From a virus (Duplodnaviria; Caudoviricetes), in the IMG/VR virus record IMGVR_UViG_3300046694_000619: a stretch of DNA of 64,000 bases, one strand, 5' to 3'. The position numbers and the translations under genes are program-made. Of this stretch, positions 5,033-63,711 are shown piece by piece (within the stretch, counting starts at the first letter, position 1; each line of letters begins with the position of its first letter). The notes under the pieces are model-generated. The model made no database searches. It saw only the letters and a list, made by a program, of their open reading frames with translations, and was not told the DNA's origin.

Positions 5033-7537
5033 TCACTGCTGCCAGGTAACGCTCACCAGGCCATTCAAGCCCTGACCGTTGATGCCGCCCGCACCGGCAG
5101 AACCACGCAGCGAAGAACCGGCGTTGCCCGGCGTGGTGCCCGAGCCGCCGAGCAACGCTGCGCCTGTAGCGCCCGCCTCAATGTAGCCGGAGCCACCACC
5201 ACCACCCGCGCCGCCCGAGCAGCCACCGCCGGTACCACCTGAGCCACCGCCGAAATAGCCGCCACCGCCGCCGCCGGATGCGCCGTTGCCAGAAAAGCCA
5301 TAGCCAGAAATGCCGCCGCCACCGTAGTTAAAGCCGGACATGCTGGACGCGGGCCCGCCGTGAAGCGAAGAGCCAGGTTGTCCGCCGCCACCACCTCCGG
5401 TCATGGAGCCGCCTGTGCCCCCGGCGCTTTGATTGCCGCCACCACCACCGCCCGAATTTGTAGGCGCGGTGGACGACGCGCCGCCGCCTGCAACACCAGT
5501 AGCGCCACCACCTGCACCGCCCGCGCCACCGACACCGCCCGCGGGACTAACCGAATACGTCGGGCAGACGGCGGTGCCGCCACCGCTGCCACCCGCACCG
5601 CCTCCACCGCCCGCGGCCATCGCCAACGTGCCGTTGATATACGCAAATGAACCGCCGCCGCCGGTGCCGCCTTGGTACGTCGAGGCGCTTGTCGTGCACT
5701 GACTGGAGCCATATTCGCAAGTACCGTTGCTGGTGCCGCCTTGGCCCACGCGCACGAGAAGCGTGGCGCTGACGGGCACGGGGATAGTCGCTCCTGCATA
5801 ACCACCGCCACCGCCTTGGCCCGAGTATCCGCCGCCACCGGCACCCCACATGGCAATGCTGGCGTGGCCGCACGCAGCTGGCGCCGTTACCGAGTAATCC
5901 GAAAGCTGCGTGACGGTAACCGTGCCACCCGGGCAGGCCGGCGTCCCTGTCAGCGCGACCGGAACGCTCGTGTCCTGCGAACTGACCATCAGGTTTCCCG
6001 ACAGCGCCGTCGACGTTCTCGGCGCGTAGGTCAGGGTCGCCGTGCAGCTTGTCCCTGCAGCTAGTGCCTGTCCGCAGGTATCAGTCTCGGTTACACCAGT
6101 CGGCAAGGAGAACGACAACTTCGTTGTCGCGATATTGCCGTTGTTCGTGAGTGTTACTGTCTTGACCAGGCTGCTTGCAGTGCTGACGCTACCGAAGTCC
6201 ACGGCCGTCGGCGACGCGACCAACTTCGTACCTTGACCTGTGCCGGACAGGTTGACAGTCGTGTCGCCGGAGCTCGCCGATACCTTGACGGTGCCCGTGG
6301 CCGCGCCGATTGCGGTTGGCGTGAAAGTGACGCTGACCGTACAGTTCGCGTTCGCCGCGAGCGAAGAGCCGCAGGTGTTCGTCACACTGAACGGACCGGT
6401 ACCCGTGATGCCAGTCACGCCGAGGGGTTTGTCCCCTGTGTTGGTGAGCGTGAGCGTCTTCGCGCTCGACGGTGTGCTTACGGCCTGGTTATCGAAGCTC
6501 AGTGCCGTTGCCGACAGCGTTCCGTATCCGAGCTTGGCCACGAAGAGCTGGTATGCCTGCTGACCAGTCTTTGCCTTGTATGCGGCCTGAATCGTGAATG
6601 TGCTAGTGCTGCCCGCCGGCGGCGTTCCCGCGATGACCCCGTCAGAAGTAAGGCTCAGGCCGACTGGAAGGCTGCCGCCGACCACGCTCCAGGTAACCCC
6701 CGCGCCGGTGTAGGCAGCGTCACCTGAGACAGAAAGACGGGGCTTGAGGTCGTAGCTGTAGGCCGATGACTGGGTGGCGTCGGGCAGTGCCGCGCTAGCC
6801 AGCGTGACAGTAATCGCCCCCACCGCGACCTGGTAGGCCTGCTGACCCGAGCGGGTTTTGTATGCGGCCTGAACCGTAAAGGGCGTTCCGGCGTTTTCTG
6901 CCGTCGGGATTCCGGCGATGACGCCATTGGCTCCGAGGCTCAGTCCGGCCGGCAGCGCTCCGCTGACGACACTCCAGGTGACGCCCGTGCCTGTGTAAGC
7001 CGAATCGCCTGACACAGCGAGGGAGGGCGTGAGGTCATAGCTGTATGGCGCACCTTGGGTCCCGTCCGGCAGGCCTGAAGCAGCCAGGGAGACGACCAGG
7101 TTGTTGATGGTGACGGAGTAGCTCTGCTCACCGGCCTTGGTCTTGTAGCTCGCCAGCAGCTGAAAGTTCGAGTTGGCCGGGGCTGCCGGCGTACCGGAGA
7201 GCTTGCCGTCCGTGCTGAGTGTCAAGCCAGCGGGCAATGCGCCGCTCGCTACGGACCAGCGCACATTGCTTGCGCTAAATTGCGGGTCACCTTTGACCTG
7301 CAGCACCGAGTTGAAGTCGAAGCCCGCGTACGCCTCCCCAACCAAACCCTGAGGCAGGCTGTACGCACTGAGCGAAACCAGAATGTTGCCAGCCGTTGCG
7401 GTCCGATTCGGCACCGGGACAACCACGTAATAGTTCGTGGCGAACGACGAGGCCGAGGCTACCAGCAGCGAGGCTGCGAGGAGCTGCTTCAAGCGGGTCA
7501 GCCGGAATGGCGAGTGCGAGGAGGTCGATTGGTCCAT
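5033..7537 (-). CDS. secreted putative Ig-repeat / ASH-domain protein with glycine-rich C-terminus
   Basis: Signal peptide, 3x W.V.SG.LP.GL.L..G.I.G.P repeats, two LTNTG/CG..LA...CT domains, WGAGGGG Gly-rich tail. Confidence 0.85.
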   Translation of the reverse strand: MDQSTSSHSPFRLTRLKQLLAASLLVASASSFATNYYVVVPVPNRTATAGNILVSLSAYSLPQGLVGEAYAGFDFNSVLQVKGDPQFSASNVRWSVASGALPAGLTLSTDGKLSGTPAAPANSNFQLLASYKTKAGEQSYSVTINNLVVSLAASGLPDGTQGAPYSYDLTPSLAVSGDSAYTGTGVTWSVVSGALPAGLSLGANGVIAGIPTAENAGTPFTVQAAYKTRSGQQAYQVAVGAITVTLASAALPDATQSSAYSYDLKPRLSVSGDAAYTGAGVTWSVVGGSLPVGLSLTSDGVIAGTPPAGSTSTFTIQAAYKAKTGQQAYQLFVAKLGYGTLSATALSFDNQAVSTPSSAKTLTLTNTGDKPLGVTGITGTGPFSVTNTCGSSLAANANCTVSVTFTPTAIGAATGTVKVSASSGDTTVNLSGTGQGTKLVASPTAVDFGSVSTASSLVKTVTLTNNGNIATTKLSFSLPTGVTETDTCGQALAAGTSCTATLTYAPRTSTALSGNLMVSSQDTSVPVALTGTPACPGGTVTVTQLSDYSVTAPAACGHASIAMWGAGGGGYSGQGGGGGYAGATIPVPVSATLLVRVGQGGTSNGTCEYGSSQCTTSASTYQGGTGGGGSFAYINGTLAMAAGGGGGAGGSGGGTAVCPTYSVSPAGGVGGAGGAGGGATGVAGGGASSTAPTNSGGGGGGNQSAGGTGGSMTGGGGGGQPGSSLHGGPASSMSGFNYGGGGISGYGFSGNGASGGGGGGYFGGGSGGTGGGCSGGAGGGGGSGYIEAGATGAALLGGSGTTPGNAGSSLRGSAGAGGINGQGLNGLVSVTWQQ

Positions 7538-8148: not shown

Positions 8149-9984
8149 ATGGACCTCATTTCAAAACTGCTGGATAGCCAGGAGGCGTCGGCCGCAGCCT
8201 TCGGGTTTCTGGCCTACGCCTTGTTTATTGTGTGGCGCCGCGCGTCGGCGCGCTGGGTGAACTGGTTCCCGCCACTCGCCAAGATTGCTCGCCTCGCGCT
8301 CTATGCCTGCGCGCTCGTCGTCGGCTTCATCGGCTTTCGCGTACTCACCAACGCGGATGCGTCGCCTTACACCTGGCTGCTCGTCGTTGGTGGTGGCTGT
8401 ACGGGTCCCGTGCTGAACCGCGTGTCCCGCTTCCTGCGCCCGAAAGAAAAGATTCGCCGCGGCGCGCGCGTGGGCACGCCCGCTGACGTCAACAAGCAGA
8501 GTAGCAAGGAGATGCCGTCCAGCGACTTCAAGGACAGCTTCGAGATGGGCGGCGTGAAAATCCCGCGCTCGGCCGAACCGTATCACTTCTTCGTGGTCGG
8601 CTCGACGGGTACGGGTAAGTCGGTGGCCATCACCAACCTCATGGACGAAATCGAAGCGCGCGGCGACATCGCGCTCGTCGTCGACTCGGGTGGTGAGTTT
8701 TCTTCGCGCTACTTCAAGCCGGGCCGCGACCACATCCTGAATCCGTTCGACGACCGTTGCGCACCCTGGTCGCCTACTGCAGAGCTTGCGGGCCCTTGGG
8801 ACGCTGAAGCGCTCGCCAAGTCGATGGTGCCGGACGGTGTCGGAGACTCGAAGGAATGGAACGGCTACGCGCAGACGTTCGTGACGTCCGTGTTGCGTCG
8901 GCTCATGGCATTGAACCGCCTCTCCATCAAGGACCTGCTGTACTACGTCCAGGCCGCGCCCATCGAGGAGCTCACGCCATTGCTGGCCGGCACGTCGGCC
9001 GCCGCACAACTGGTTTCGGACCGGACTTTCGGGTCCATCCGGACGATTGCGACCAACTATCTGTCGACGTACGCGTATCTGTCGGACAACGACAACCCCT
9101 TCTCGGTGGCGAAGTTCATCCGTGCCGAAAAGCCGGGATTCCTGTTCTTCACGTACCGCGACGACCAGCTCGATTCGCTGCGCAACATGATTGCCTGCGC
9201 GCTTGACGTAGCGGCGCGGACCATCCTTGCGTTGCCTGCCAATAGTGAGCGACGGGTATGGCTCATCATCGACGAGTTCGCCTCAATCGGCAAAGTGCAG
9301 AGCATCGAGGCCGTGGCAACCAAGGCACGGAAGATGGGTGGTTGCCTGCTGATTGGTCTGCAGTCGGTTTCGCAGTTGCAGGAACGCTACGGCGAGAAGG
9401 GCGCGCAAACCATTCTGTCGTGCTTGAGCTCCTGGCTCGTGCTGCGCTGCTCCGACGCGGAGACATCTGAGTACGTCTCGAGGTACATCGGCGATACGGA
9501 AATCTCCCGCATGACCCGCTCGGAGTCTACTTCCGACACGGGCGGCGGCTCGGACTCACGCAACGAACAGATTCAGACCCAGCGCGCGGTGATGCCGGTG
9601 GAGCTGCAAAAACTTGTCAACCTGCACGGCTTCTTCAAGCTCGCCGGCGGCTACCCCATCTGCAACGTCAAGCTGAGCTACCCCAAGAAGCGCGAAGCAC
9701 GCTCCCAGAAATACGCCGAACGCGACTTCATCGCGAAGCCGATGCTCGACCTCATTCCGGCTACCACTCCGGCGAGCCCGGCTGGTGGAAGTGAAGGCGC
9801 GGGACAGGGCATGCAACCGCAGGCCCACGCCGAGGACGCGAACACGTCGGTCGCCGACACGCATCCGACCGCTGAAACCGAACAAGCCACCTTGCGGGTC
9901 CGCAAGAGCCCGCTCGAAGAGGGGCCTGCCGCCCTCGAAGAAATTCTGAATGAACTGGCAGAAGCGTTCGAAAACGATTTTTAA
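8149..9984 (+). CDS. type IV coupling protein (TrwB/TraD family)
   Basis: N-terminal TMs, Walker A GSTGTGKS, LNPFDDR..W, Walker B IIDEF, RK.GG...GLQS..QL..YG. Confidence 0.9.
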   Translation: MDLISKLLDSQEASAAAFGFLAYALFIVWRRASARWVNWFPPLAKIARLALYACALVVGFIGFRVLTNADASPYTWLLVVGGGCTGPVLNRVSRFLRPKEKIRRGARVGTPADVNKQSSKEMPSSDFKDSFEMGGVKIPRSAEPYHFFVVGSTGTGKSVAITNLMDEIEARGDIALVVDSGGEFSSRYFKPGRDHILNPFDDRCAPWSPTAELAGPWDAEALAKSMVPDGVGDSKEWNGYAQTFVTSVLRRLMALNRLSIKDLLYYVQAAPIEELTPLLAGTSAAAQLVSDRTFGSIRTIATNYLSTYAYLSDNDNPFSVAKFIRAEKPGFLFFTYRDDQLDSLRNMIACALDVAARTILALPANSERRVWLIIDEFASIGKVQSIEAVATKARKMGGCLLIGLQSVSQLQERYGEKGAQTILSCLSSWLVLRCSDAETSEYVSRYIGDTEISRMTRSESTSDTGGGSDSRNEQIQTQRAVMPVELQKLVNLHGFFKLAGGYPICNVKLSYPKKREARSQKYAERDFIAKPMLDLIPATTPASPAGGSEGAGQGMQPQAHAEDANTSVADTHPTAETEQATLRVRKSPLEEGPAALEEILNELAEAFENDF

Positions 9985-13863: not shown

Positions 13864-13939
13864 GTGCGCTTCGTCTAGTGGCCCAGGACCCCGTCTAACA
13901 AGGCGGGAGACACAGGTTCGAATCCTGTAGCGCGCTCCA
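13864..13939 (+). tRNA. tRNA with Glu-like body and a non-7-nt anticodon loop (identity undetermined)
   Basis: D arm GTCTAGTGGCCCAGGAC; arm CCCGTCTAACAAGGCGGG folds to a 6- or 8-nt loop; CCA. Confidence 0.7.
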
Positions 13940-18689: not shown

Positions 18690-18776
18690 GCCCAGGTGGC
18701 GGAATTGGTAGACGCGCAGCGTTGAGGTCGCTGTGTCCGAAAGGACGTGGGGGTTCGAGTCCCCCCTTGGGCACCA
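18690..18776 (+). tRNA. tRNA-Leu(GAG)
   Basis: class II, TT GAG GT, CCA. Confidence 0.93.
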
Positions 18777-19004: not shown

Positions 19005-19089
19005 GCTCCGAATGGCGGAATTGGTTAGACGCCTTGGTCGTACCAGGGACCGCAAGGTCGTGTGGGTTCGAATCCCGCTTCGGGCACCA
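19005..19089 (+). ncRNA. tRNA-Leu-like RNA lacking an anticodon loop
   Basis: Leu D arm, V arm, A73 and CCA present; anticodon arm is CTTGGT-CGT-ACCAGG. Confidence 0.75.
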
Positions 19090-31519: not shown

Positions 31520-32710
31520 CTTCTGGGGGAATCACGGCTAGGTAGGTAGGACCTACGATGACGTGCGCTGGCAGGTGGAAAGCATGGGCCTTGGCCCCTC
31601 TGCAACCCGAAGTTGTCCGGAAACACAGGCCGGACTGAGCAAGCATACCGACTTGCAACTGTGGTTCCCCGAGAAGAGAGAGTTTTGCATCGGTAAGTGT
31701 CTCCATGTAGCCGATGGGTTCGCGTTGCACCTGCGTCTTCCTTCGGGCGGATGTGGGCTCAGCTTCTGCCTTCGGGTGGAAGTCGGCTCCGCGAGCTGTC
31801 TATGGAGAAAACATCCCGCCTGGGGGAGACAGCCGTAGCGATACGGTCAAAGCGAGGTAGCCCACTAACTCGCGCCAAGCCTGGCCTGCACTTCGGTGCG
31901 GGTGAGGATGGTCAATCCAGGCAAGCCTCCTCGACCTCGCAAGGGGTTCGTCATCGACCAGCGGTGGCGATAAGGATGAAGCATGTGGCTGGGAAAGAAC
32001 GTTGGCCGACAAGCCCAAAGTGCCCTTCGGGGGCTGCGGGGAACTTGGGTCGACGAACAGCAGCGGGTGGTGCCGCGGTCCAGCCTTAACCAACGTGCGA
32101 ATCTGTACGGGAAAGGGTAGCGCTGTTGTCGTAGATGCCCTCAATGGCGACAGCGCAGTTCCAGGGGTAATGGGTTCGTTGCAAAACGCGCCCGGAGTCC
32201 TGAAGAACCGTCGAGTATCCGGCAGGAAAAAGACATGATGCGGGTGACATTGGGATGGTCAAAAGCCATTTCAGTCACGGACACGCCCGTATCGGTGGGT
32301 TGCAACTAGCTCAATTGGATAGAGCAACGGCCTTGAAAGCCGTGGGTTGAAGGTTCAATTCCTTCGTTCACTAAAACGCAAAGTCGTGTCCGGCATTTCG
32401 CAACAGTGGCTTAATCCTGTCCGGGGAACCCCGAAGGCAGGCGCCTGAAATCCGCAAGATGGAGGGTGTTGATTGGATTCCGCACGTAGAGGCTGCAACC
32501 TCGAACGGCTCGCAAGGTCGGCGGTAGGAAGAGAATCGAGTAGCGAGATGCGACAGGGAGAGTTCGCCAGCCCTGGGGTAACCCGAAAGACGGCAGCCAT
32601 GGCGCTAAACCGGGCTTGAGCTCGGTGGATACAGGAGGCAAGGTGGGCCGCAAGCTCACTATAATCCTCCTAAGTGGAGCGTCGATTCCGGCTGTAATCT
32701 CAGGCCTGAA
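31520..32710 (+). ncRNA. large GOLLD-like ncRNA, boundaries approximate
   Basis: 1.2 kb without a credible ORF, many GNRA/UUCG hairpins, embedded tRNA module, 3' end GCTGTAATCTCAGGC as I recall for GOLLD; tRNA-array context. Confidence 0.6.
32300..32372 (+). tRNA. tRNA module (anticodon TGA) embedded in the large RNA, defective acceptor stem
   Basis: D, anticodon (ACGGC CT TGA AA GCCGT) and T arms intact; only ~3 acceptor pairs, no CCA. Confidence 0.55.
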
Positions 32711-33219: not shown

Positions 33220-33295
33220 GGCGGGGTGGCGCAGTTGGTAGCGCACGGGGCTCATAACCCTGGGGTCGATGGTTCGAATCCATCTCCCGCAACCA
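33220..33295 (+). tRNA. tRNA-fMet(CAT)
   Basis: 1:72 mismatch, three G-C pairs in the anticodon stem, CCA. Confidence 0.88.
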
Positions 33296-33304
33296 GTTTT
33301 TGCA

Positions 33305-33475
33305 GTGGGAAGGAGCAGACCGCAGCCTATGCGTGCGGGATGACAGGCCCCGCTCGGACGCATGAAGTTGGGTGCGGAGAGTCGACGGACTGAGCATAAA
33401 CGGAGTCGAGGGTAAGGCCGCGGACGTGTGATGTAGGGCACGAGAGCGGTTCCGAGGTTACGACACCGGCCCACA
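33305..33475 (+). ncRNA. structured RNA, family A copy 2
   Basis: AGGAGCAGA...AAACGGAGT..GGGTA...ACACCGGCC as in 26888-27086. Confidence 0.5.
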
Positions 33476-33526
33476 GCAGATTCACCATTTTCAAGAGCGG
33501 CACTTGTGCGGCTCGAGTAGTTCAAT

Positions 33527-33604
33527 GGCGGGGTAGCTCAGCCTGGTAGAGCGACAGCCTCATAAGCTGAATGTCGTTGGTTCGAATCCAACCCACCGCA
33601 ACCA
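33527..33604 (+). tRNA. tRNA-Met(CAT) with initiator-like acceptor end
   Basis: CT CAT AA, ...CCGCAACCA end, bulged acceptor. Confidence 0.82.
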
Positions 33605-33917
33605 GTTACCCGGGTGTCCTGGCCCGTAATTTACCAGGCTCGGCACTCCTGCCGGCCTACCGTTGGCTATGGAGCGGAACCTGCGGTATATCGGGGGCAA
33701 CCTCGGTAAGCCATCCCGAAAGGGATTCCGACAGGAGTAACGCAGGCAGCTTGGTGTGAGCTGAAACGCAAAGGATAGCGTATCTGTTGAGCCTCCCGGG
33801 GAGGCTCTTCGTGAGCGCCGCACATCTGACTGGTAAAGCGCCCACGTGCCAGCTGTTGGTAGCAGCGTGGCACACCGATTTTCAGGAGTGGCTTTCGAGC
33901 GACTCCAGCAGCTCGAT

Positions 33918-33995
33918 AGCGGGGTAGAGCAGTCCGGTAGCTCGTCGGCCTCATAAGCCGAAGGTCATGGGTTCAAATCCCATCCGCCGCAACCA
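33918..33995 (+). tRNA. tRNA-Met(CAT), fMet-like D arm
   Basis: GAGCAGTCCGGTAGCTC, CT CAT AA, bulged acceptor, CCA. Confidence 0.85.
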
Positions 33996-34186
33996 AACGT
34001 AGGTCGTTGTGAATGCAACGATTGAAAGACAATCCGGCCACGCTTGCCATCTTCACAAGGGATGGCGTGCCTTAAGAGGCAGCGCATCTGAAATCGCGGA
34101 TTTACGCGTGAACCCCAGGGACGCCTGGGTCTACGGAACAAGGTGGTCGCAAGACCATCGGCGAGGGGATAACCTTTGCCACCCTT

Positions 34187-34262
<76 letters not shown>

Positions 34263-34595
34263 AATTACTCCGGCCTGGCAGTGTCACCGCATAAGAGGAC
34301 AGGTGTTCCTCTGGACGATTTTCGTGCTGCCAGCCCCGAGTGATTTCAGCAGGAAATGCACGGGCGACGTGCAAGAAAGGACGGAGTGTCCTGGCAGTGA
34401 GAACTGACCAGCTGTTGCGATGAGAGGTCGCAAGACTTTTTCGGTTCGAAAGTAGCATCGGGCCGTCCAAAACCGAAATGCCGGGTTCGCATCCGGCTCC
34501 TGTCGATGTCACGCGAATTGACTGCTCCAAAACGTGGGACCCGGTCTCCATGGATGTGGCGAAGTATCGGGCTTTGAGCAGTCTTTTCGCAGGAT

Positions 34596-34672
34596 GGTGA
34601 TGTAGCTCAGCTGGTCAGAGCGTTGCACTCATAATGCAGAGGTCGTCGGTTCGAGCCCGACCATCACTACCA
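34596..34672 (+). tRNA. tRNA with CAT anticodon (Ile2 or elongator Met)
   Basis: CT CAT AA, CCA. Confidence 0.88.
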
Positions 34673-39132: not shown

Positions 39133-39333
39133 GATGTACCTCAAAATGGATTTGGCACTCACTGACACGTACACTCGAACAAGGGGATACCCAGCGGTTT
39201 CCTCGAATTCGTATAGCTCAGAGAGTGCCCATCGCAGAGGTAACAACCGCGCAGGTCTGCCACATTTCGGATATTGCATTCAGAGGGGTCTAACGCGTTA
39301 ATGCTGTTTTATGATATAATGCAACTTCAGTGA

Positions 39334-39628
39334 GTCAGACTCATGGGCGGTAGGCTTAGAAGCAGCCAGCGGCGTGAAAACCCGCGTACCGATAATGAGT
39401 GGTGATAGGCGCGTGTGACCGTGGAACTGTTCACCCTGATGAACACCACAGACCCGTGAGATTCGCGGGCACTGGAAGCAGGGCGAGGATGGCAGATACC
39501 GAAGGACTGATGCTGCATGGACGTGGAGCGGCATCGGAGAAGGCAAGCCATCAGGAAAAAAGGTTGCGAGGGCGTTGTCCCCTGAAATGACCAATAACCT
39601 TTGGCGTGAAAGCACACCTGGGTTTGAC
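39334..39628 (+). ncRNA. RNA containing a split mimic of the 23S rRNA L11-binding domain (H43/H44)
   Basis: GGCTTAGAAGCAGCCA and GCGTGAAAGCACAC closed by GTCAGACTCA/TGGGTTTGAC; extended -10 promoter at 39312-39320. Confidence 0.7.
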
Positions 39629-39709
39629 CTGCTGACGCCCTGGACTCGCGGGCGTTAAAACGAGGAGGGAGTCCGGTGGAAGCCCGGCACCGAATACACG
39701 GAGAAGCCA

Positions 39710-40048
39710 ATGGCTGAGAATTTTGATACCACGCCGTACTACCGCAAGCTGGCCAGCAATGAGCCTCTCACCGAGGACGAAATCGTCTCGCTGCTAAAGG
39801 CTGTGGATTCGTTTCGAAACGCGACCGCCTATCTGGCGGACTGCCATGCCGCAACGCTCGAGAGCATGCCGCGTTCTGCGTCCAAGTCCGCGCGTACGCG
39901 CATGGAATCCATCTGCAAGACGTCGGCCGAGCTGCTCGACGGCGGCTACAACCCGTTGACTCATCGCTCCACGCCCGACGCCGCGCAGAAGCGCTGTTTG
40001 CGAGTCATCGAAGAAAGCAAGGCGCTCGTCGGGCCGGTCGGTACCTGA
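39710..40048 (+). CDS. hypothetical protein
   Basis: GGAG RBS, 112 aa. Confidence 0.7.
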   Translation: MAENFDTTPYYRKLASNEPLTEDEIVSLLKAVDSFRNATAYLADCHAATLESMPRSASKSARTRMESICKTSAELLDGGYNPLTHRSTPDAAQKRCLRVIEESKALVGPVGT

Positions 40049-53077: not shown

Positions 53078-56047
53078 ATGCAACCCTTGCTTAAAAAAAT
53101 AGTTGTCGCAACACTCCTGGCAGTTAATGCTGGCCCGCTGCTCGCTTCGGACTACTTCGTCGTGGTTCCGGTACCGAACCGAACAGCTACTGCCGCAAAA
53201 AACATCACCGTTTCACTCACCGGGCTATCACTGCCCTCGGGCCTCATCGGCACGCCATACGCAGGTTTTGATTTCAAGAGCCTGCTCAACGTCACGGGCG
53301 ACCCTGCCTACAACGGCTATGGCGTGAAGTGGACCGTCGTCGCCGGCAGTCTGCCATCAGGCCTCACGCTCAACAGCAACGGCACGCTGAGCGGCACGCC
53401 GACGGCCGCAGGAACGTCGAGTTTCCAGGTGATGGCCAGCTACAAGTCGAAGGCTGGCCAGCAGGCCTACCAGGTTCAGGTCGCCAACATCACCGTTGGG
53501 CTGGCTGCCGGCGCGCCGCCTCAGGCACTTGTCGGGCAGGCTTACAGCTATGACCTGAAGCCGTTGCTCAGTGTGAGCGGCGACAGCGCATACACCGGCG
53601 CCGGGGTGACCTGGACAGTCGTGTCCAGCTCGCTGCCGACCGGTCTTTACCTCACATCGGACGGCTTTATCGGCGGCACGCCGACGGCTGGCGGCACGGG
53701 CTCCATCACTGCGCGCGCGTCGTACAAAGGCGTCAACGGCCAGCAAACCTATCAGGTGGTTTCGCTCGCCGTCTCGGTGGCGCTCGCGGCCGGAACGCCG
53801 CCGCAGGCACTTGTTGGACAAGCCTATTCGTACAGTCTGAATTCTCTCCTGTCGGTTGACGGGGACTCCGCCTTCAACGGCTCTGGGGTGACGTGGAGCG
53901 TTGTCTCGAGCACGCTGCTCGCCGGGTTGTATCTCACGAATGATGGCTGGATTGGCGGTACGCCGACGGCCAGCGGCAGCGGCACCATCACCGCGCGCGC
54001 GACGTATCGGGGTGTGAGCGGACAACAGACGTATCAGGTCGTGACGCTCAATCTCGCGGTCGGACTTGCCGCGGGTGCCCCACCTCAGGCAATCATCGGG
54101 CAAGCCTATTCGTACAGCCTGAGCTCGCTGCTCACTGTGAATGGCGACCCCGGCTTCAATGGTTCAGGCGTCACCTGGAGCCAAGTGTCGAATTCGCTGC
54201 CCGCCGGCCTTTCCCTGGGCCCGGATGGCACTGTCATCGGCACGCCGACGGCAGCTGGCACCGGCTCCATCACCGCTCGCGCGTCGTACCGCGGCGTTGA
54301 CGGCCAGCAAACTTACCAGGTCGTGTCGCTGAACATCGCAGTGACACTTGCTACGGCGACGCCGGCGCAAGCAATTGTCGGCCAGGCGTACACCTACGAC
54401 CTCAAACCGCTCCTGACGGTCTCAGGAGACGCGGGCTATTCCTCCGCGAACGTGACGTGGAGCGTAGATTCCGGGTCTCTGCCTGCTGGACTGTCGCTGG
54501 GGACAACTGGTGTCATTACCGGCACGCCGACGGCCGCAGGCACAGGTTCCATCGCCGCGCGCGCGACCTATCGCGGTGTCAACGGTACGCAGACCTATCA
54601 GGTTGTCACGCTCAACATCACCGTCGCTCTCGCGAATGCGACTGCGACCGCGGCTACTGCGGATGACGTCTACAGCTACGACCTGAAGCCACTCCTCTCC
54701 GTCGCGGGCGACAGCAGCTACCAGGTTTCGGCTGTCACCTGGGCACTATCGAGTGGAACGCTGCCCACAGGCCTGACGCTCAATACGACCACGGGTGTGA
54801 TTAGCGGCACGCCGGCCCGGTCGTCGACGGGCACCAGCACGTTTGGCGTTACCGCCTCGTACCGCAGCAAGACGGGGCAGGGCAGTTACACCATCAACGT
54901 CGCGATGGCGCCGGCCAAGCCGCGCTGGAGCGTCACGACGCTCAGCCTGGGCAACGCGAGCCTGAGCGGCACGAGCAATACGGCGACCGCCACGCTCTAC
55001 AACGACGGTGGCCTCGCAGGAAACTGGACGTCGCTCAGCAATTTGGGAAGCGGTGTCACAGCGGACGCGTCAGGCTGCTCGAGCGTCGCGCCGAGCGCGT
55101 CATGCGTGGTGACGTTCACGTTCAAGCCGACCGTCATCGGTACGGTCAATCTGAGCGGCATCACACCCACGGCCAGCGCTAGCCGCGCAGTCAACACGCT
55201 GACCATCACGGCGGCCGGCGTGCAGCGCATTCTCGCGCTCAGCCCGGCTGTAAGCGGCAAGAGCAGCTGGAACCTCGATACCGACGGTCCGCTGCGCCTG
55301 GCTGCTGCGGGCACTTACACCGTCGTGCCCGCTACCTCGATGAACATCAGCACGAAGCTCTGGGGTGCTGGCGGAGGCGGTGGCGGCGCAGACGCCGCGC
55401 CTTACTACTCCGGCGTCGGCGGCGGTGGCGGCTATGTCGGCGGCACGTACGTCGCAGCCAAGAGCGTGAGTATGACCTTCAACGTAGGTGGCGGTGGTGG
55501 CTCGGGCATCGGAGCCAGCGGCGCTGGCGGTGGTGCTGGAGGCTGGAATGGCGGCGGCAAGGGCGGCAACGCTGGTCTTCAGGGCTCGTCCGGCGGGGGC
55601 GGCGGCGGTGGCGGCTTGACCGAATTGGTAGTGAACGGCAGCGAAATTGCATGTGCCGGCGGCGGCGGCGGTGGTGGTGGTGATGGCAACGTAGCAACCA
55701 ACGGCAATAACAACGGCAACTATTACGGCGGCTGGACGACTACCAAGACCGGCGCAAGCGGGGCGCAGCGCTCGGACGACGGAGGGGGACCGGGCGGAGG
55801 CGGCGGTGGCTGTAACGGTGGCCAGGCCTCGACGTACTTCCCGGCCAGCGACTCGAACGCCGAAGGCGGTGCTTACGGCGCGTCGGTGAACTACGGGCTC
55901 AGCGGCGCGGCAGCGGCGCAGCCCGCAATGGGCGGCGCGGCGGCCAACTCGGCGGACGCTGACGTAGGTTCCAATGCGCACGGCGGCATCAATGCAACGA
56001 CATCCGGTGCAGCAGCCGGTACTGCTGGCGTCGTTGTCCTACGCTGA
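53078..56047 (+). CDS. secreted putative Ig-repeat protein with glycine-rich C-terminus
   Basis: Signal peptide, six ~94-aa repeats, Gly-rich tail; paralog of 5033-7537. Confidence 0.85.
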   Translation: MQPLLKKIVVATLLAVNAGPLLASDYFVVVPVPNRTATAAKNITVSLTGLSLPSGLIGTPYAGFDFKSLLNVTGDPAYNGYGVKWTVVAGSLPSGLTLNSNGTLSGTPTAAGTSSFQVMASYKSKAGQQAYQVQVANITVGLAAGAPPQALVGQAYSYDLKPLLSVSGDSAYTGAGVTWTVVSSSLPTGLYLTSDGFIGGTPTAGGTGSITARASYKGVNGQQTYQVVSLAVSVALAAGTPPQALVGQAYSYSLNSLLSVDGDSAFNGSGVTWSVVSSTLLAGLYLTNDGWIGGTPTASGSGTITARATYRGVSGQQTYQVVTLNLAVGLAAGAPPQAIIGQAYSYSLSSLLTVNGDPGFNGSGVTWSQVSNSLPAGLSLGPDGTVIGTPTAAGTGSITARASYRGVDGQQTYQVVSLNIAVTLATATPAQAIVGQAYTYDLKPLLTVSGDAGYSSANVTWSVDSGSLPAGLSLGTTGVITGTPTAAGTGSIAARATYRGVNGTQTYQVVTLNITVALANATATAATADDVYSYDLKPLLSVAGDSSYQVSAVTWALSSGTLPTGLTLNTTTGVISGTPARSSTGTSTFGVTASYRSKTGQGSYTINVAMAPAKPRWSVTTLSLGNASLSGTSNTATATLYNDGGLAGNWTSLSNLGSGVTADASGCSSVAPSASCVVTFTFKPTVIGTVNLSGITPTASASRAVNTLTITAAGVQRILALSPAVSGKSSWNLDTDGPLRLAAAGTYTVVPATSMNISTKLWGAGGGGGGADAAPYYSGVGGGGGYVGGTYVAAKSVSMTFNVGGGGGSGIGASGAGGGAGGWNGGGKGGNAGLQGSSGGGGGGGGLTELVVNGSEIACAGGGGGGGGDGNVATNGNNNGNYYGGWTTTKTGASGAQRSDDGGGPGGGGGGCNGGQASTYFPASDSNAEGGAYGASVNYGLSGAAAAQPAMGGAAANSADADVGSNAHGGINATTSGAAAGTAGVVVLR

Positions 56048-56153
56048 CCTGATGTAACCATGGCTCCAGCAGCATTTGCCGCTGCCGGAGCCTTTATTTT
56101 ATGCTATACTGCACGCGGCCAATTTTGATGGCCATAACCACATGGAGTGACCG

Positions 56154-56832
56154 ATGAAACTGACGCTTGAAATCCATCCCGCAGAAGGCGGCGATGACGC
56201 AAAGCTGCTGGTCCATGACCAGGCAGCAATCTACACCCGCTTTGCCGCCCGCAACGGCCTGAAGGCACATGTGGAGGCACGGGGCTACCTTTGACCTCGT
56301 TTTCATTGAAGGCCCCGAGGAGCTGCTGAAGCCCCTCATTCAAGAAGCCGGAGGCCACCGCCACATGCGCGTGCCGCCCACCGAGCGCAAAGGACGCGTG
56401 CACACGAGCACCGTCACTGTCGCAGTGTTCGAAGGTCACTTCGAGCCACAGCAAGCGACGTCAATCCATCCGAATGACATCCATGAGCGCGTTACGCGCG
56501 GAACTGGCGCGGGTGGACAAAATCGCAATAAACGTGAAACTGTCATTGTGCTAACGCATCGCCCCACCGGCATCGAGGTGAAGGCCGAGGCGGAGCGCAC
56601 GCAGGAAGCCAATCGACGCGTCGCCACCGCCACGCTACTTGAGCGGGTGCAGGCGCACTACGCTGGCGCGGCGCAGAACGCCGTCAACCAGCAGCGCAAG
56701 TCGCATGTCGGCACGGGCCAACGCGGCGACAAGGTACGGACCTACCGCGCCGACGGCGTCACGGACCACCGCACTAGCCGGCGCGCGCCGCTCGCATATG
56801 TGCAGGCGGGCAAGCTTGAGCTGTTGCGGTAA
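56154..56832 (+). CDS. peptide chain release factor-like protein with a +1 programmed frameshift at 56289-56295
   Basis: ORF0 MKLTLEIHPAEGGDDAKL...RGYL-TGA; +1 frame has EAGGHR..RVPPTE..GRVHTS, GAGGQ, ERTQ..N, RGDKVRTY. Confidence 0.88.
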
Positions 56833-56994
56833 TCGAGAACCAGCTGGGATGACGGCGGCGCCCCGGGAGGCGCCGTTTCGTGCTTTGGATTTTGACGGTG
56901 CTGACTTGTGCGCGGCGCCATAGTGCCTGCGGCGAGCAGGCCTATACGCTAGCGCAGGCCATCACACAACGTCGGAAATATGAGGAGCCAAGGC

Positions 56995-59265: not shown

Positions 59266-60498
59266 TCAGACCTCACCTTCGTTCCAGTCAGCGTGGTGGT
59301 ACCTTTCGGTAGCATCGTGTCGCGAGTTGGCTTCGCTATGCAGATATATGCTGGTTGTGGAAATCGAGTTGTGACCAAAGTTGTCACGCACGAACCGCAA
59401 GTCGATGTGGTCGGCCATTTGAGTGCCAGCAGTGTGACGCATCCAGTGAGCGGACGCACGCTCGACCCCCGCCGCGAGCGCCTCGCTTTCCGGACCTGGC
59501 GTTTGCCGCACACGCGCCGCTGTGCGATGGAAGACCTCCTTGATTATCCGATGCAACGCTCCGCGGGTGAGCGGTCGCCCCTTATCTTGTGCTATGACCG
59601 GTAGAACCAGCGGACGAACAGGCTCTCCCGCGCGCGGCAAAGGCGGAAGGTCATTGGCAATCCGATAGCGTTTGAGTTCCGTCATCATCTCGGAAGTGGC
59701 AGGAACATCGCGCGTCTTGCCACCTTTACCAGTCACCTTGAGCCACCAACGTTCGATACCTTTTGAGTCTCGTCGACCGAAGAGGGAGCCCATGGTGGCA
59801 CCCGTAACTTCCGACGCGCGCAGACCCCCGATGTACAACACCGTGAAAAGCCATCGACAACGCGCTGCGTGAAGGCGCTCGCGTTGGGTGGTAACTGGCA
59901 TCTGCTCGATAGTGGTCTTCACGAGAAGCCACATCTCGGTACTCAGAAACCGCTCGACGCGAGGCGGCTCTTCACGCTCCCGCGGCACCAGTGCGAAGGG
60001 GTTACGATTGAGATACCCCGCATTTTGAAGCCATTTAAAGCAGGTACTCAGTACCACATGCGCATATTCAACGCTGTTTGACGACAGCGTCCCCGCGAAT
60101 GGTCGCCAGTCTGCGTGCCCGCGCGGCAATTTCTTCTTGCCCTTCAGCATCCATCGCTCTCTGGGCTGCGGGTCCGCCAGAAAGTGCCGATAGGCCACCA
60201 GGTCTTCATGCGTGAGCGACGAAAGTGGCTTTCCCCGCTCAATCACAGCCCATAGGAGGAACCGCTCGGCCTCGCGACGATAGGCATCCAGGGTAGCCGG
60301 CCGTTTCAGATAGTTCGTCAGCCACGCCACAACGGCCGAGATGTCATCCTTCGCAGTGAGCTGCAAATCTTCCAACGGCGCGCGGTTTTTACCTTCAACT
60401 CCCGACAGGGCGCGGGGAAGCCTCAGTTGCTCGAGCGGTACCGGTACAGAAGGCGCGGCAATGGGCTGCGGCAATTGCGATGAGAGTTCGTGGCTCAT
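59266..60498 (-). CDS. tyrosine recombinase / resolvase
   Basis: GLRASE, GKGGK.R, HWMRH, FGH..ISTT..Y. Confidence 0.93.
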   Translation of the reverse strand: MSHELSSQLPQPIAAPSVPVPLEQLRLPRALSGVEGKNRAPLEDLQLTAKDDISAVVAWLTNYLKRPATLDAYRREAERFLLWAVIERGKPLSSLTHEDLVAYRHFLADPQPRERWMLKGKKKLPRGHADWRPFAGTLSSNSVEYAHVVLSTCFKWLQNAGYLNRNPFALVPREREEPPRVERFLSTEMWLLVKTTIEQMPVTTQRERLHAARCRWLFTVLYIGGLRASEVTGATMGSLFGRRDSKGIERWWLKVTGKGGKTRDVPATSEMMTELKRYRIANDLPPLPRAGEPVRPLVLPVIAQDKGRPLTRGALHRIIKEVFHRTAARVRQTPGPESEALAAGVERASAHWMRHTAGTQMADHIDLRFVRDNFGHNSISTTSIYLHSEANSRHDATERYHHADWNEGEV

Positions 60499-60658
60499 TT
60501 GAGGACCGACAGTCGTGGGCGAGGCATTTTCCAAAATAGGTAGCCAAATTGTACAACAAGTTACCTAATAACCCTTATGTCTAAACTCTCGCTATTTTTT
60601 CAGGATAACCTATGTATTACGTAGTAATATTTGAATAAATCACTCTCCGCCTTCCGAA

Positions 60659-61690
60659 ATGACCGAAAACCCCGAAAAGCTCGATGATTCCGCCCTCCAG
60701 GTCGAGGTCGAAGCGCTGCGCAATCGCGTCCCGGATACGCGGGCGCTGTACCGGGAGGTCTGCGGGCTGCTGTTCTTCAGGTACGGCTCCGTGCCGACGG
60801 CCAACCGGCTCTATCAGCTCGTGCGCAAAGGCAGCATGGGCGTGCCCGGCGAGGTGCTCGCCCAGTTCTGGGTCGACCTACGAGAGAAGTCCCGCGTCAA
60901 AATCGACCATCCCGAGATGCCGGACGCCATCAAGCAGGTGGCGGTCGAGGCGATGCAGGGCATCTGGGAAGCCGCGGCCGCAGCGGCACGCAGCGAGCTA
61001 TCGGACGTGCGCGCCGACGTCGAACTCAGGGCGCAGGAGGCCGAGGTCCAGCGCCAGCAGACCCAGACCGCGCTCGATTACGCGCGCCGCGAAATCGCTG
61101 TGGGCCAGGAAAAGCTCGACGAGCTCGCGCGCGAACTGACTGAATCACAGGAACTGCTTCAGGCCGAGCGTGCTGCACACGCAGCGACGGAAGCCCGCCT
61201 GCAGGAGATGCGCCGGCAGGTAGAGGAACGCGACCGGCAGCTGACCGAGACACGCGCGCAATTCTCGACCGAGCTCGAGCACGCGCGGCAACAGGTCACC
61301 GACGCAGCGGCGCGCGCCGCTGCAACTGAGCGACGAGTGATGCTCGAGTTCGACAGCGAGCGGACGTTGCGGCAGAAGGGGGAAAAGCTCATCGAGGAGC
61401 TTCGAGCAGAACTCGGCAGCGCGCGCAATGAGACCCGGGAAGCCGACGTGCGGCACGCGGACGCCGTAGCGCGACTCCAGAGCGAATTGCAGGGCGTCAA
61501 CCAGCGTTTGACGGTTGCGGACGCCGCGCAGGACCGCCACGCGGGGTTATTGTCGCAACTGCGCGCCGAGCTGGACGAGGCCACGCGGCGCGCGGAACGA
61601 GCAGAGACCGAAGTCGAGGTCACCCGCCGGCTTATCGCGGGCTTCAAATCCACGCCGGTAGAAAAGGCCGCGCGCCGCCGCAGCACATAA
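60659..61690 (+). CDS. KfrA-like DNA-binding coiled-coil protein
   Basis: PTANRLYQLVRKGSM N-domain then a long coiled coil; divergent from the recombinase. Confidence 0.85.
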   Translation: MTENPEKLDDSALQVEVEALRNRVPDTRALYREVCGLLFFRYGSVPTANRLYQLVRKGSMGVPGEVLAQFWVDLREKSRVKIDHPEMPDAIKQVAVEAMQGIWEAAAAAARSELSDVRADVELRAQEAEVQRQQTQTALDYARREIAVGQEKLDELARELTESQELLQAERAAHAATEARLQEMRRQVEERDRQLTETRAQFSTELEHARQQVTDAAARAAATERRVMLEFDSERTLRQKGEKLIEELRAELGSARNETREADVRHADAVARLQSELQGVNQRLTVADAAQDRHAGLLSQLRAELDEATRRAERAETEVEVTRRLIAGFKSTPVEKAARRRST

Positions 61691-62185
61691 GCGACCACGC
61701 AAAGAACAAAAAACCGCTCTACATGAGAGCGGTCGGGAGGGGCTTATTGCTTAGAAGTCCGCCGTGTGCGTGACCTGCGCGCCATTCGTCTCGGCAAGCA
61801 TCACGGTTATCTCGTGTCTCTTTTTCTCAGGCACCTTCCAGAACGCGGCAGCCTTCTTCTGTGCATCGTAGCTGGTGTCTGCTTGAATTTCGGTGCGGCG
61901 ACCCTTGTGAAATGCGACGTATCCGTTCATGGCGTATGTATCCTCAGAATGTCAGCGAAATTGCGACATTCCGTATAGCGCGCCGCCGGCCGCGAAGATG
62001 CTCGCCCGCTCTCGACTCCTGGCTGCCCAATCGCAAGGCCTGAGTTTCACCATCTTCCATGCACGCATCGAGGAAGAGGGTGAGGGAGCGACGCTCGCCT
62101 GGAAACAGGGTTACACAGATTATTCGATTACAGGATTACCGGGCGCCGCATTCTCAAAAACTCGCCACTACCAATTCTGTTTTCG

Positions 62186-62290
62186 AGTGTGGATACCCAA
62201 ATAGCGTGGGTGGACGACAAGTATTCCGTGTGTGGGGGACCAGTGTGGGCGTGTGTGACCGACAAGTTTTCCGTGTGTGGACGACAAGCG
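62186..62290 (+). repeat. iteron-like direct repeats upstream of rep
   Basis: CGACAAGT(A/T)TTCCGTGTGTGG twice plus partial GTGTGG copies. Confidence 0.55.
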
Positions 62291-62432
62291 GCCGAATCAT
62301 GCCCTGCTGTGTTGCCCGACCCATATGCCACTCGTTAAGAAGGGAATTCCCGATTCGCGTCATCGTCTCAAGACGTGTCATTATCGCTATTTTATGGTAT
62401 AATGTGGGTATCCACTTAAAGAAGTGCCCGCA

Positions 62433-62651
62433 ATGCCAAAGCCTAACTCCGCTGACCGACACCGAGCTGGTAGCGTTCAGCTCAAAGCGTGGTTACCGGA
62501 AACCCTCCGTGACCAGTTCAACGCCAGCTGCAAGTCTCAGGGTATGCCGGCAGCCGTTGTACTGCGCGAGCTCATGGAAGCGTACATCAGTCACGTCAAC
62601 GAGCCGCCCGCAACGCCTTCTCAGCCCGAGTCTGCCCATGCCTCGCATTGA
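62433..62651 (+). CDS. ribbon-helix-helix (CopG-like) protein
   Basis: LKAWLPETLRDQF...C...G......LRELMEAYI; overlaps the rep start. Confidence 0.65.
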   Translation: MPKPNSADRHRAGSVQLKAWLPETLRDQFNASCKSQGMPAAVVLRELMEAYISHVNEPPATPSQPESAHASH

Positions 62652-63711
62652 TTTCGCGCAGGTCGCGCTCGCCGCGCAGGCCAAGGCGGTCCGTCGCGCG
62701 GCGGAGCACGCTGTCGACGGCGAGACGCGCGTGCTTGCGCAGGCCGCGGCTGACACCGTCGAAGCGGTAGCGCGCCGCCAGCAGCACCGAAAGGCTGCCG
62801 AAACGGCGACGCCCGTGCTCGAGCTGGCCGCGAACGCGTCGCCCACCGAAATCCGGGTGGCACGCCAGCGCCGTGCCGTGCGACGCGGCAAGGACGTGTT
62901 CCTGCCGTCATGGAAAGACGCCGCCGTCGCGTTGCCCAATGCGCTGTTGCGCTCGGCACTCTTTTCGGCAAGCAGCGCGAGCCGTGAAGCGCTGTTCGAG
63001 GCACCGATTGCGGCACAAGGCGACGTTGTGCTTACGCTCACTGGGCATCAGCTCTGCGATTATGACCGACGCGTGTTCGCTGCCTGTCTGAATCACTACC
63101 GTGACGACCGGCCGCTGGTGCCGGACGACACTTCGCCCGCCTGGGTCACACTCACGTTTTACCAATTCGCACAAGACCTGGTCACGTCATACAGCGCGAA
63201 TGTTCACAAGGCCATCCGGGACAGCCTTATCCGGCTGAGCGCCGCCCATCTGCGGGTGCGCATCAACCGGCGCGACATTCCGTTACCGCGGCTCATTGAT
63301 GTCGCGTTTGACGACGGCTTCGCCGGCCAGGAGCCGGCCGACTGCATGCTGCGCGGTAGCGACCGGGTGGCGTTCCGGATTTTTGAGTCCATGGCCAACC
63401 TGTTCGGGCCTGCGGACTGGAGCGCAGTGCCGCAGCCGGCGCTCACCGACTACTCAGGGCTCGCTTCGTGGCTCGCGAGCTTCTACAGCACGCACGCGAA
63501 GCCGTATCCGTTGAAGGTCGCCGACCTGTACCGTTATGCGGGCGTTACCTGCGAGCTGCGCGAGTTCCGCCGCATGCTGAAAATAGCGCTCGAGAAGCTC
63601 AAGCGCGACACGGCCAACCCGGTCGTGCGCGTAGAGAGCTTCGAGCTGACCAAGGATGACCTGACGGTACGTCTTGCGCGCTGGACGCAGATGGCGTTGC
63701 CGCTCGGCTGA
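62638..63711 (+). CDS. plasmid replication initiator, TrfA family
   Basis: LP.W......PNALLRSALF, G.QL...D..V, WL..FY.TH..PYP..V..L....G. Confidence 0.85.
   Translation: MPRIDFAQVALAAQAKAVRRAAEHAVDGETRVLAQAAADTVEAVARRQQHRKAAETATPVLELAANASPTEIRVARQRRAVRRGKDVFLPSWKDAAVALPNALLRSALFSASSASREALFEAPIAAQGDVVLTLTGHQLCDYDRRVFAACLNHYRDDRPLVPDDTSPAWVTLTFYQFAQDLVTSYSANVHKAIRDSLIRLSAAHLRVRINRRDIPLPRLIDVAFDDGFAGQEPADCMLRGSDRVAFRIFESMANLFGPADWSAVPQPALTDYSGLASWLASFYSTHAKPYPLKVADLYRYAGVTCELREFRRMLKIALEKLKRDTANPVVRVESFELTKDDLTVRLARWTQMALPLG

Follow-up and report, generated by a model that had tools for sequence, protein, structure and literature searches.

A split gene for a short RF1-type release factor with a prfB-like CTT TGA C junction on a tRNA-array element

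The mini-RF gene, its product and its surroundings

The stretch of DNA analyzed here (64,000 nucleotides; IMG/VR record IMGVR_UViG_3300046694_000619; hereafter the window) stems from a rhizosphere metagenome assembly and carries near its end, on the plus strand, a release factor gene in two pieces that we refer to as mini-RF. A Shine-Dalgarno sequence recognized by direct reading (GGAG; 56144-56147) precedes by 6 nt the ATG codon (56154) of a first reading frame, ORF1 (56154-56294), whose 46 frame-0 codons (56154-56291) encode the first strand and the codon-reading helix (GGDDA) of release factor domain 2 and are followed by a TGA stop codon (56292-56294). The second reading frame, ORF2 (56293-56832), is found in the +1 frame and extends from a GAC codon at 56293 to a TAA stop codon at 56830-56832 (179 codons plus TAA); it encodes the remaining part of domain 2/4 with the motifs PPT (56374-56382) and RVHTS, and domain 3 with the GGQ motif (56512-56520). 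The end of ORF1 reads CGG (56280) GGC TAC CTT TGA C through position 56295. It contains an SD-like GGGG (56281-56284), the presumed stimulator of a frameshift, positioned 4 nt upstream of the CTT codon of the putative shift site CTT TGA C (56289-56295; CTT 56289-56291, TGA 56292-56294, C 56295). When CTT-T is taken as a single step, the joined product of ORF1 and ORF2 (P0001) comprises 225 amino acids and has GYLDLVFIEGPEELLK as its junction peptide. The heptamer CTTTGAC occurs 10 times in the window against 8.1 expected occurrences, which is the chance level; hence, what speaks for its use is where it lies, at the junction, together with its conservation in relatives.

A promoter scan upstream of ORF1 found no sigma-70-like site. 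Downstream of ORF2, direct reading reveals a candidate terminator on the plus strand (56856-56888), a 7-bp GC hairpin (CGGCGCC/GGCGCCG) followed by TTTCGTGCTTT, that was not called in a consensus terminator scan; we regard it as tentative because its T run is too weak for such a scan. Two other ways of dealing with the junction were considered and discarded: transcriptional slippage, since the T run at this site consists of three bases only, and frame-0 readthrough past the TGA codon, since that frame stops after four codons and is without homology.

The joined protein matches the RF1 model NF001859 in a colinear fashion with 168.5 bits over positions 106-332 of 347, to which ORF1 alone contributes positions 106-143 and ORF2 alone those from about 167 onward, and it contains the Pfam domains PCRF (PF03462; 61.6 bits) and RF-1 (PF00472; 74.6 bits). 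It stays below the equivalog cut-offs of both RF1 models (168.5 vs. 400 bits for NF001859; 161 vs. 423 bits for TIGR00019). Among solved structures, RF1 chains are matched with an E value of 5e-37 and 34-35% identity over residues 125-350 of a 371-aa RF1 protein, and RF2 chains with an E value of 1e-16. The PrfH model TIGR03072 reaches 57.2 bits (cut-off 166.65) and covers the GGQ domain only, while the ArfB model NF006718 reaches 33.4 bits (cut-off 100) over merely 35 residues. An AlphaFold2 model of the joined protein, based on a 32-sequence alignment, has a mean pLDDT of 91.5 and places the junction (residues 46/47) inside a beta hairpin of domain 2, with the sheet continuous across it. When compared by Foldseek, this model superimposes on ribosome-bound RF1 with a TM-score of 0.88 (2.3 Å), whereas the TM-score is 0.62 with PrfH and about 0.5 with closed crystal forms.

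Since the protein starts where domain 2 of RF1 starts, domain 1 (about 105 residues) is wholly missing. Codon recognition and peptide release do not require domain 1, but action on RF3 does (Baranov et al., 2006, PMC1586002). The PPT, RVHTS, and GGQ motifs are invariant or nearly so across the family alignment, and no SPF-like element is present in P0001. The analysis therefore confirmed the gene as one for a short RF1-type class-I release factor that consists of domains 2, 3, and 4 only. An earlier note on this DNA, drawn up from the letters and their open reading frames, had proposed just such an RF1-like factor without domain 1, of about 225 amino acids with PPT, RVHTS, and GGQ, arising at a CGG GGC TAC CTT TGA C junction between a short ORF1 and a +1 ORF2. 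The sequence reads exactly so, the joined product aligns to RF1 without a break, and both the match to the RF1 model and the motifs support the class assignment; the likeness to PrfH that the note had also seen extends to the missing domain 1 and ends there, given the low score against the PrfH model and the RF1-like decoding motifs.

With RF1 decoding motifs in the product, peptide release would be expected at UAA and UAG. Two substitutions leave this codon specificity less than certain: at the tip of the codon-reading helix, the conserved Glu of RF1 is replaced by Asp throughout the family, and the Gln residue preceding PxT in RF1 is replaced by Met, the latter exchange being confined to the window and the two relatives closest to it. 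In the structures of RF1 and RF2 termination complexes, this Gln contributes to third-base reading, and the corresponding residue of RF2 is hydrophobic. It is a matter of speculation that the Met-carrying subclade might read UAA only.

Among the genes of the window are those for a TrwB/TraD-type coupling protein (8149-9984), a tyrosine integrase (59266-60534, minus strand), KfrA (60659-61690), and TrfA (62059-63711). These backbone genes give the window the appearance of a plasmid or integrative conjugative element and not that of a phage. The window also encodes thymidylate synthase, dUTPase, and a YqeY-like protein, and its 52 tRNA genes (12047-37331), all on the plus strand, cover most amino acids and include a tRNA-Leu(GAG) gene (18690-18776) whose product would read CUU. 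In this array, ARAGORN assigned four-base anticodons to two tRNAs (13864-13939, 'aaca'; 19006-19089, 'acca'), four tRNAs have a CAT anticodon (33220-34672), and a GOLLD RNA (32237-32706; 154.6 bits with a gathering score of 150 in Rfam) has a tRNA-like match (32304-32368) embedded in it. Another stretch of the window (39298-39710) is conserved in the Novimethylophilus locus (L002:703-978); the tblastn matches lie on ORFs that overlap each other, a pattern suggestive of conservation at the RNA and not the protein level.

In the window, mini-RF is flanked by a gene for an Ig-domain protein and by small ORFs. Large proteins with He_PIG Ig-like repeats are encoded at 53078-56047 and 5033-7537; the former, whose gene immediately precedes mini-RF, ends with a long Gly-rich tail. 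The window has no RtcB gene next to mini-RF, and no partner gene is conserved beside mini-RF across the loci. Individual relatives have RNA-repair genes next to them: a kinase-phosphatase-T4-type RNA ligase 1 fusion of the tRNA-repair type lies directly upstream of the Novimethylophilus gene (L002:3720-5933), an RtcB RNA ligase gene (L176:4715-5911) follows immediately downstream of a frameshift-type mini-RF and recalls the RtcB2-PrfH pair, though the factor is RF1-type here, and a 2'-phosphotransferase gene adjoins the relative in L175. The Novimethylophilus locus also has a tRNA gene with a UUA (ochre-reading) anticodon (L002:12256-12331), 5.6 kb downstream of mini-RF.

Conservation of the split and the types of interruption in the family

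A genome scan with a single protein query yielded three loci, and the homologs from Achromobacter anxifer and Novimethylophilus kurashikiensis (68-69% identity) show the identical split with CTT TGA C. At the DNA level, we collected 14 frameshift-type genes with identities as low as 49%; their sources are genomes of Achromobacter, Novimethylophilus, and Paraburkholderia, viral contigs, and metagenomes. In every one of them ORF1 has its own start codon and a length of 46 codons, and the CTT TGA sequence is invariant; the next base is a C in 13 of the 14 genes, and a GGAG or GAGG sequence is found at an equal distance before ORF1 in 12. The codon preceding CTT is variable (TAC, TAT, CAC, CAT, AGT, CGT, CGC, TTT). 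Approximately 39 further clusters at 90% identity, taken from the best 120 database matches, are represented by ORF2-only calls whose artificial N-termini bear the imprint F-D, the +1-frame reading of TTTGAC.

For ORF1, dN/dS amounts to 0.0-0.37 in frame 0, and a +1-frame reading of this DNA yields values of about 1-3; comparison with the relative in L005 shows 11 synonymous and no non-synonymous changes in ORF1. This frame specificity indicates that ORF1 is translated in frame 0 up to its stop codon and that no internal start of ORF2 is under selection. The earlier note had held that in-frame homologs would point to a sequencing indel or a recent mutation. This is not what we found: close homologs are not in frame, and CTT TGA stands at the junction in all 14 diverged genes. 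Its expectation that annotation pipelines would mis-call the gene was borne out as well, since databases hold either ORF2-only proteins with arbitrary starts or two separate coding sequences. The frameshift-type gene that it described turned out to be one variant within a large family, most genes of which are interrupted by an in-frame UGA codon instead.

This family of proteins of about 225 amino acids without domain 1 is represented by at least 405 matches in viral contigs of IMG/VR and by 543 or more in metagenomes. Its genes reside on mobile elements, for the most part huge phages and megaplasmids, next to tRNA arrays. Contigs of 100-500 kb carry many of the loci, and tRNA genes lie within 5 kb at 104 of 165 loci. 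Among 164 genes, 133 have an early in-frame TGA codon at a conserved Trp position (11 of them with two TGAs), eight have a +1 shift at CTT TGA, two have a +1 shift at CTT TAG C (L050, L071), one has an in-frame TAG codon, and 20 are uninterrupted. A truly uninterrupted case (translation table 11) is P0010, whose gene adjoins the capsid gene of a T4-like phage, while P0067, which appears full-length in the database, translates only when TGA is read as Trp. In the low-GC relatives L050 and L071 (5001-5670 in both), the CTT TAG C sequence is found where a second in-frame TGA is present in their nearest relatives; autoregulation by an RF1-type product would be possible there. Two diverged, TGA-interrupted mini-RF copies are present on a single 3.9-kb metagenome contig (L057:940-1608 and L057:2911-3582).

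The same in-frame TGA occurs on a megaplasmid of a cultured isolate, Variovorax sp. WDL1, whose gene we translated here. The locus on its plasmid 2 (816 kb; L179:6971-7675) adjoins 15 tRNA genes. RefSeq lists two coding sequences at this site, one for a 56-aa hypothetical protein and the other for a 172-aa 'peptide chain release factor-like protein', and likewise splits the homolog into two coding sequences on three related Variovorax plasmids.

The base after an internal TGA codon is A in 89 cases, C in 26, and G in 12; T does not occur there. At the true ends of TGA-interrupted genes, TAA is used in 106 of 117 cases, often as TAAT, and 10 of the 11 genes that end in TGA have TGAT. The importance of a U in the +4 position is taken here from a published study (PMC5289835). 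Taken as sequence patterns, these stop contexts are consistent with selection that favors leakiness at the internal stop and efficiency at the final one.

An alternative genetic code does not account for the internal TGA. Four complete or near-complete huge phages (350-517 kb) with a TGA-interrupted mini-RF have genes for the Gp23 capsid protein and the large terminase without internal stops, from which we conclude that these four phages use the standard code. TGA serves as an ordinary stop codon in the low-GC flanks, and none of the tRNA genes found in the locus flanks has a UCA anticodon. The capsid and terminase check was used for the complete phages, and ORF-coverage and 'deep TGA' tests were read for the low-GC loci; the L160 contig (45% complete) gave no capsid or terminase match. 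Two homology tests for a reading of TGA as Trp in the flanks were set aside as too noisy, since they scored a standard-code chromosome like the phages and were dominated by off-frame and tRNA-derived alignments.

A quick maximum-likelihood tree groups the gene of the window with six other frameshift genes in a single monophyletic clade (SH-aLRT 100), which is nested among the genes with an in-frame TGA. The frameshift-type gene in L160 (49% identity) falls outside this clade, so that there was more than one gain or loss of the frameshift form. The shift site is positioned one codon downstream of the TGA of the relatives (G-Y-L-shift-D vs. G-W-L/I-D). For the GGGG of the window, the predicted duplex with the 3' end of the 16S rRNA has a free energy of -5.0 kcal/mol. 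Over the homologous 9 nt, anti-SD pairing averages -5.1 kcal/mol in frameshift genes vs. -3.1 kcal/mol in genes with an in-frame TGA and -2.6 kcal/mol in the high-GC relatives among the latter (Mann-Whitney p = 7e-7 for all genes and 1e-4 for the high-GC ones, p values that ignore kinship). The GGGG partly reflects a conserved Arg-Gly pair, and its spacing to CTT (4 nt vs. the canonical 3 nt) exceeds that in the host prfB genes by one nucleotide.

A proposed frameshift gated by host RF2 and rival readings

Because the anatomy of the junction is that of prfB, a programmed +1 shift at CUU UGA C appears by analogy to be the most economical reading. A ribosome that starts at 56154 would, after 46 codons, have a Leu-tRNA on CUU in its P site and UGA in its A site. 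Either host RF2 would then terminate translation and a 46-aa peptide would be released, or the tRNA would slip by +1 from CUU to UUU, aided by pairing of the GGGG with the 3' end of the 16S rRNA, whereupon GAC would be read and the full 225-aa factor would be produced. Termination by RF2 would compete with the frameshift, so that the output of the factor would be inverse to RF2 activity and should rise when RF2 is limiting at UGA. Since the product is RF1-type, such a device would amount to cross-regulation by RF2, not to autoregulation. The view of the earlier note, a rescue or substitute factor produced solely under low RF2 activity, would follow from the mechanism of prfB. RF2 normally shares the work at UAA. 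At the low-GC loci, the own genes of the mobile elements end mostly in TAA, and an RF1-type factor made under RF2 shortage would restore termination at UAA and UAG for the element; in the absence of domain 1, its coupling to RF3 would be lost.

The frameshift reading is strongly supported by the comparative evidence from the sequences, and we consider it probable that the window carries a working gene for a frameshift-gated short RF1-type factor on a tRNA-array element. We give even odds to a broader proposal: that elements with their own tRNA sets bring along an RF3-independent, RF1-type terminator metered by host RF2, with the UGA codon bypassed either by Trp readthrough or by a +1 shift. 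Several points speak against the reading as a frameshift-gated factor. An RF1-type product cannot autoregulate at UGA, so that the regulatory logic differs from that of prfB and its benefit is not obvious; furthermore, the CTT TAG C sequence in two relatives presents a stop codon that is not sensed by RF2. The 4-nt spacing of the GGGG, its partial origin in the Arg-Gly pair, and the Asp and Met exchanges in the decoding region likewise count against it.

Several other readings of the split gene have to be weighed. The window is a metagenome assembly and uninterrupted relatives such as P0010 exist, as one would expect if a 1-nt insertion had broken an open mini-RF gene and left a pseudogene or an assembly error behind. 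However, the same split, with an invariant CTT TGA and a 46-codon ORF1, is present in 14 independent, diverged genes, ORF1 and ORF2 are each under purifying selection in their own frame, and contigs from four other rhizosphere runs have no indel at the site, one of these runs even containing a strain with 12 differences in 145 nt and an unchanged cassette. By these comparisons the split is neither error nor decay, and we rate a broken gene as extremely improbable. The two pieces could alternatively be made as two products without any frameshift, namely as the 46-aa peptide and as a truncated factor initiated from within ORF2, for instance at an ATG that is present at 56269, upstream of the junction. 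Gene callers and NCBI do annotate ORF2 alone, as a 'peptide chain release factor-like protein', yet the internal start is not conserved and the called N-termini vary between genes. In addition, the +1 frame upstream of the junction is free of coding constraint, ORF1 has its own conserved SD sequence and start, and it contributes the strand, the helix, and the GGDDA tip by which domain 2 of the structural model becomes complete; production of two separate proteins is thus very unlikely.

With a frameshift granted, its purpose may still be read differently. The device would be autoregulatory, as in prfB, if the factor itself read UGA or all three stop codons. A three-stop reader would fit the finding that the relatives, with PPT retained, are interrupted mostly by UGA and in a few cases by UAG, and the Glu to Asp exchange throughout the family together with the Gln to Met exchange seen here gives the decoding pocket a non-standard makeup. 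Nevertheless, both the threonine of PxT and the loop with RVHTS are of the RF1 type, the match to RF1 is far above that to RF2, and an SPF-like element is absent, so that we view autoregulation at UGA as unlikely. A factor linked to rescue or repair on damaged or stalled ribosomes, in the manner of PrfH or ArfB, would agree with the missing domain 1, a trait of PrfH, and with the RNA-repair genes beside relatives (RtcB in L176, the kinase-phosphatase-RNA ligase in L002, and the 2'-phosphotransferase in L175). Such a role is quite unlikely in view of the scores far below the cut-offs of the PrfH and ArfB models, the restriction of the PrfH match to the GGQ domain, the closer superposition on RF1 than on PrfH, the retained stop-codon reading motifs, and the lack of an adjacent RtcB gene in the window. 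Plain dosage limitation of a toxic protein has to be named as a further rival to a frameshift gated by RF2.

Comparison with known release factor systems

The recoding field has long regarded the RF2 genes, and not the RF1 genes, as frameshift-controlled. According to a 2016 review, no frameshift device is known for RF1 and a counterpart is 'unknown' (PMC5009743); in a survey that covered more than 12,000 genomes, prfA yielded no convincing case of a programmed frameshift (Prince et al., 2025, PMC12421855); and the sole case cited by Atkins et al. is the eRF1 of a giant virus (PMC3521657). Our full-text literature searches retrieved no description of RF1-type genes interrupted by such recoding. 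The data presented here suggest that the RF1 lineage uses recoding control on mobile elements, in the two interchangeable forms of UGA readthrough and CUU-UGA-C frameshift. If true, the RF1 lineage would here provide its first natural example of expression controlled by recoding, and the two bacterial release-factor classes their first natural example of cross-regulation; the prfB cassette would then have arisen independently at a non-homologous position. Questions raised thereby are whether an RF1-type factor is tuned by RF2, which terminator need the phages and megaplasmids with tRNA arrays have, and how a factor without domain 1 works on the ribosome. For annotation, it matters that pipelines split or truncate these genes in isolates of Burkholderia, Paraburkholderia, Achromobacter, and Variovorax.

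Two TGA-recoded Jade phages have RF1 genes that are written in the standard code and are located next to tRNA genes (Borges et al., preprint, 10.1101/2021.08.26.457843). The Jade phages read TGA as Trp and their RF1 belongs to a code-change module, whereas the mini-RF phages tested here use the standard code and have the internal TGA in the release factor gene only. In Mimivirus and Megavirus, expression of the class-I release factor gene requires one readthrough and one frameshift event (Jeudy et al., 2012, PMC3521657). This gene resembles mini-RF in being a virus-borne release factor gene with internal stops, and both readthrough and frameshift are represented in the mini-RF family; it differs in being of the eRF1/aRF1 type, in residing in viruses of eukaryotes, and in having been argued to be autoregulatory, while mini-RF is a bacterial RF1-type gene of phages and plasmids.

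PrfH (RFH; the RtcB2-PrfH pair) is, like mini-RF, a short class-I paralog with a GGQ motif and without domain 1. Mini-RF differs from it by scoring below the family cut-off, by its RF1-like decoding motifs, and by having no obligatory RtcB partner. With canonical RF1 (prfA), mini-RF shares the PCRF and RF-1 domains, the PPT, RVHTS, and GGQ motifs, and the superposition on the ribosome-bound form; it departs from it by the absence of domain 1, by the Glu to Asp exchange at the helix tip, and, in one subclade, by Met in place of the Gln before PxT.

The closest parallel in gene anatomy is prfB, with its CTT TGA C heptamer, a G-rich SD-like element upstream, a short ORF1, and the bulk of the protein encoded in the +1 frame. 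In Achromobacter and Novimethylophilus, prfB itself reads CGG AGG TAT CTT TGA C, and the mini-RF genes of these bacteria have an almost identical cassette, CGG GGC TAT/CAC CTT TGA C. The two sites are nevertheless non-homologous, since the shift in prfB occurs in domain 1 near codon 25 and the putative shift site of mini-RF lies in domain 2, at about residue 150 of RF1. Mini-RF is, moreover, RF1-type rather than RF2 and resides on mobile elements. While prfB is autoregulatory, the mini-RF product, to judge from its decoding motifs, should not read UGA, and its frameshift would place an RF1-type factor under the cross-regulation of RF2.
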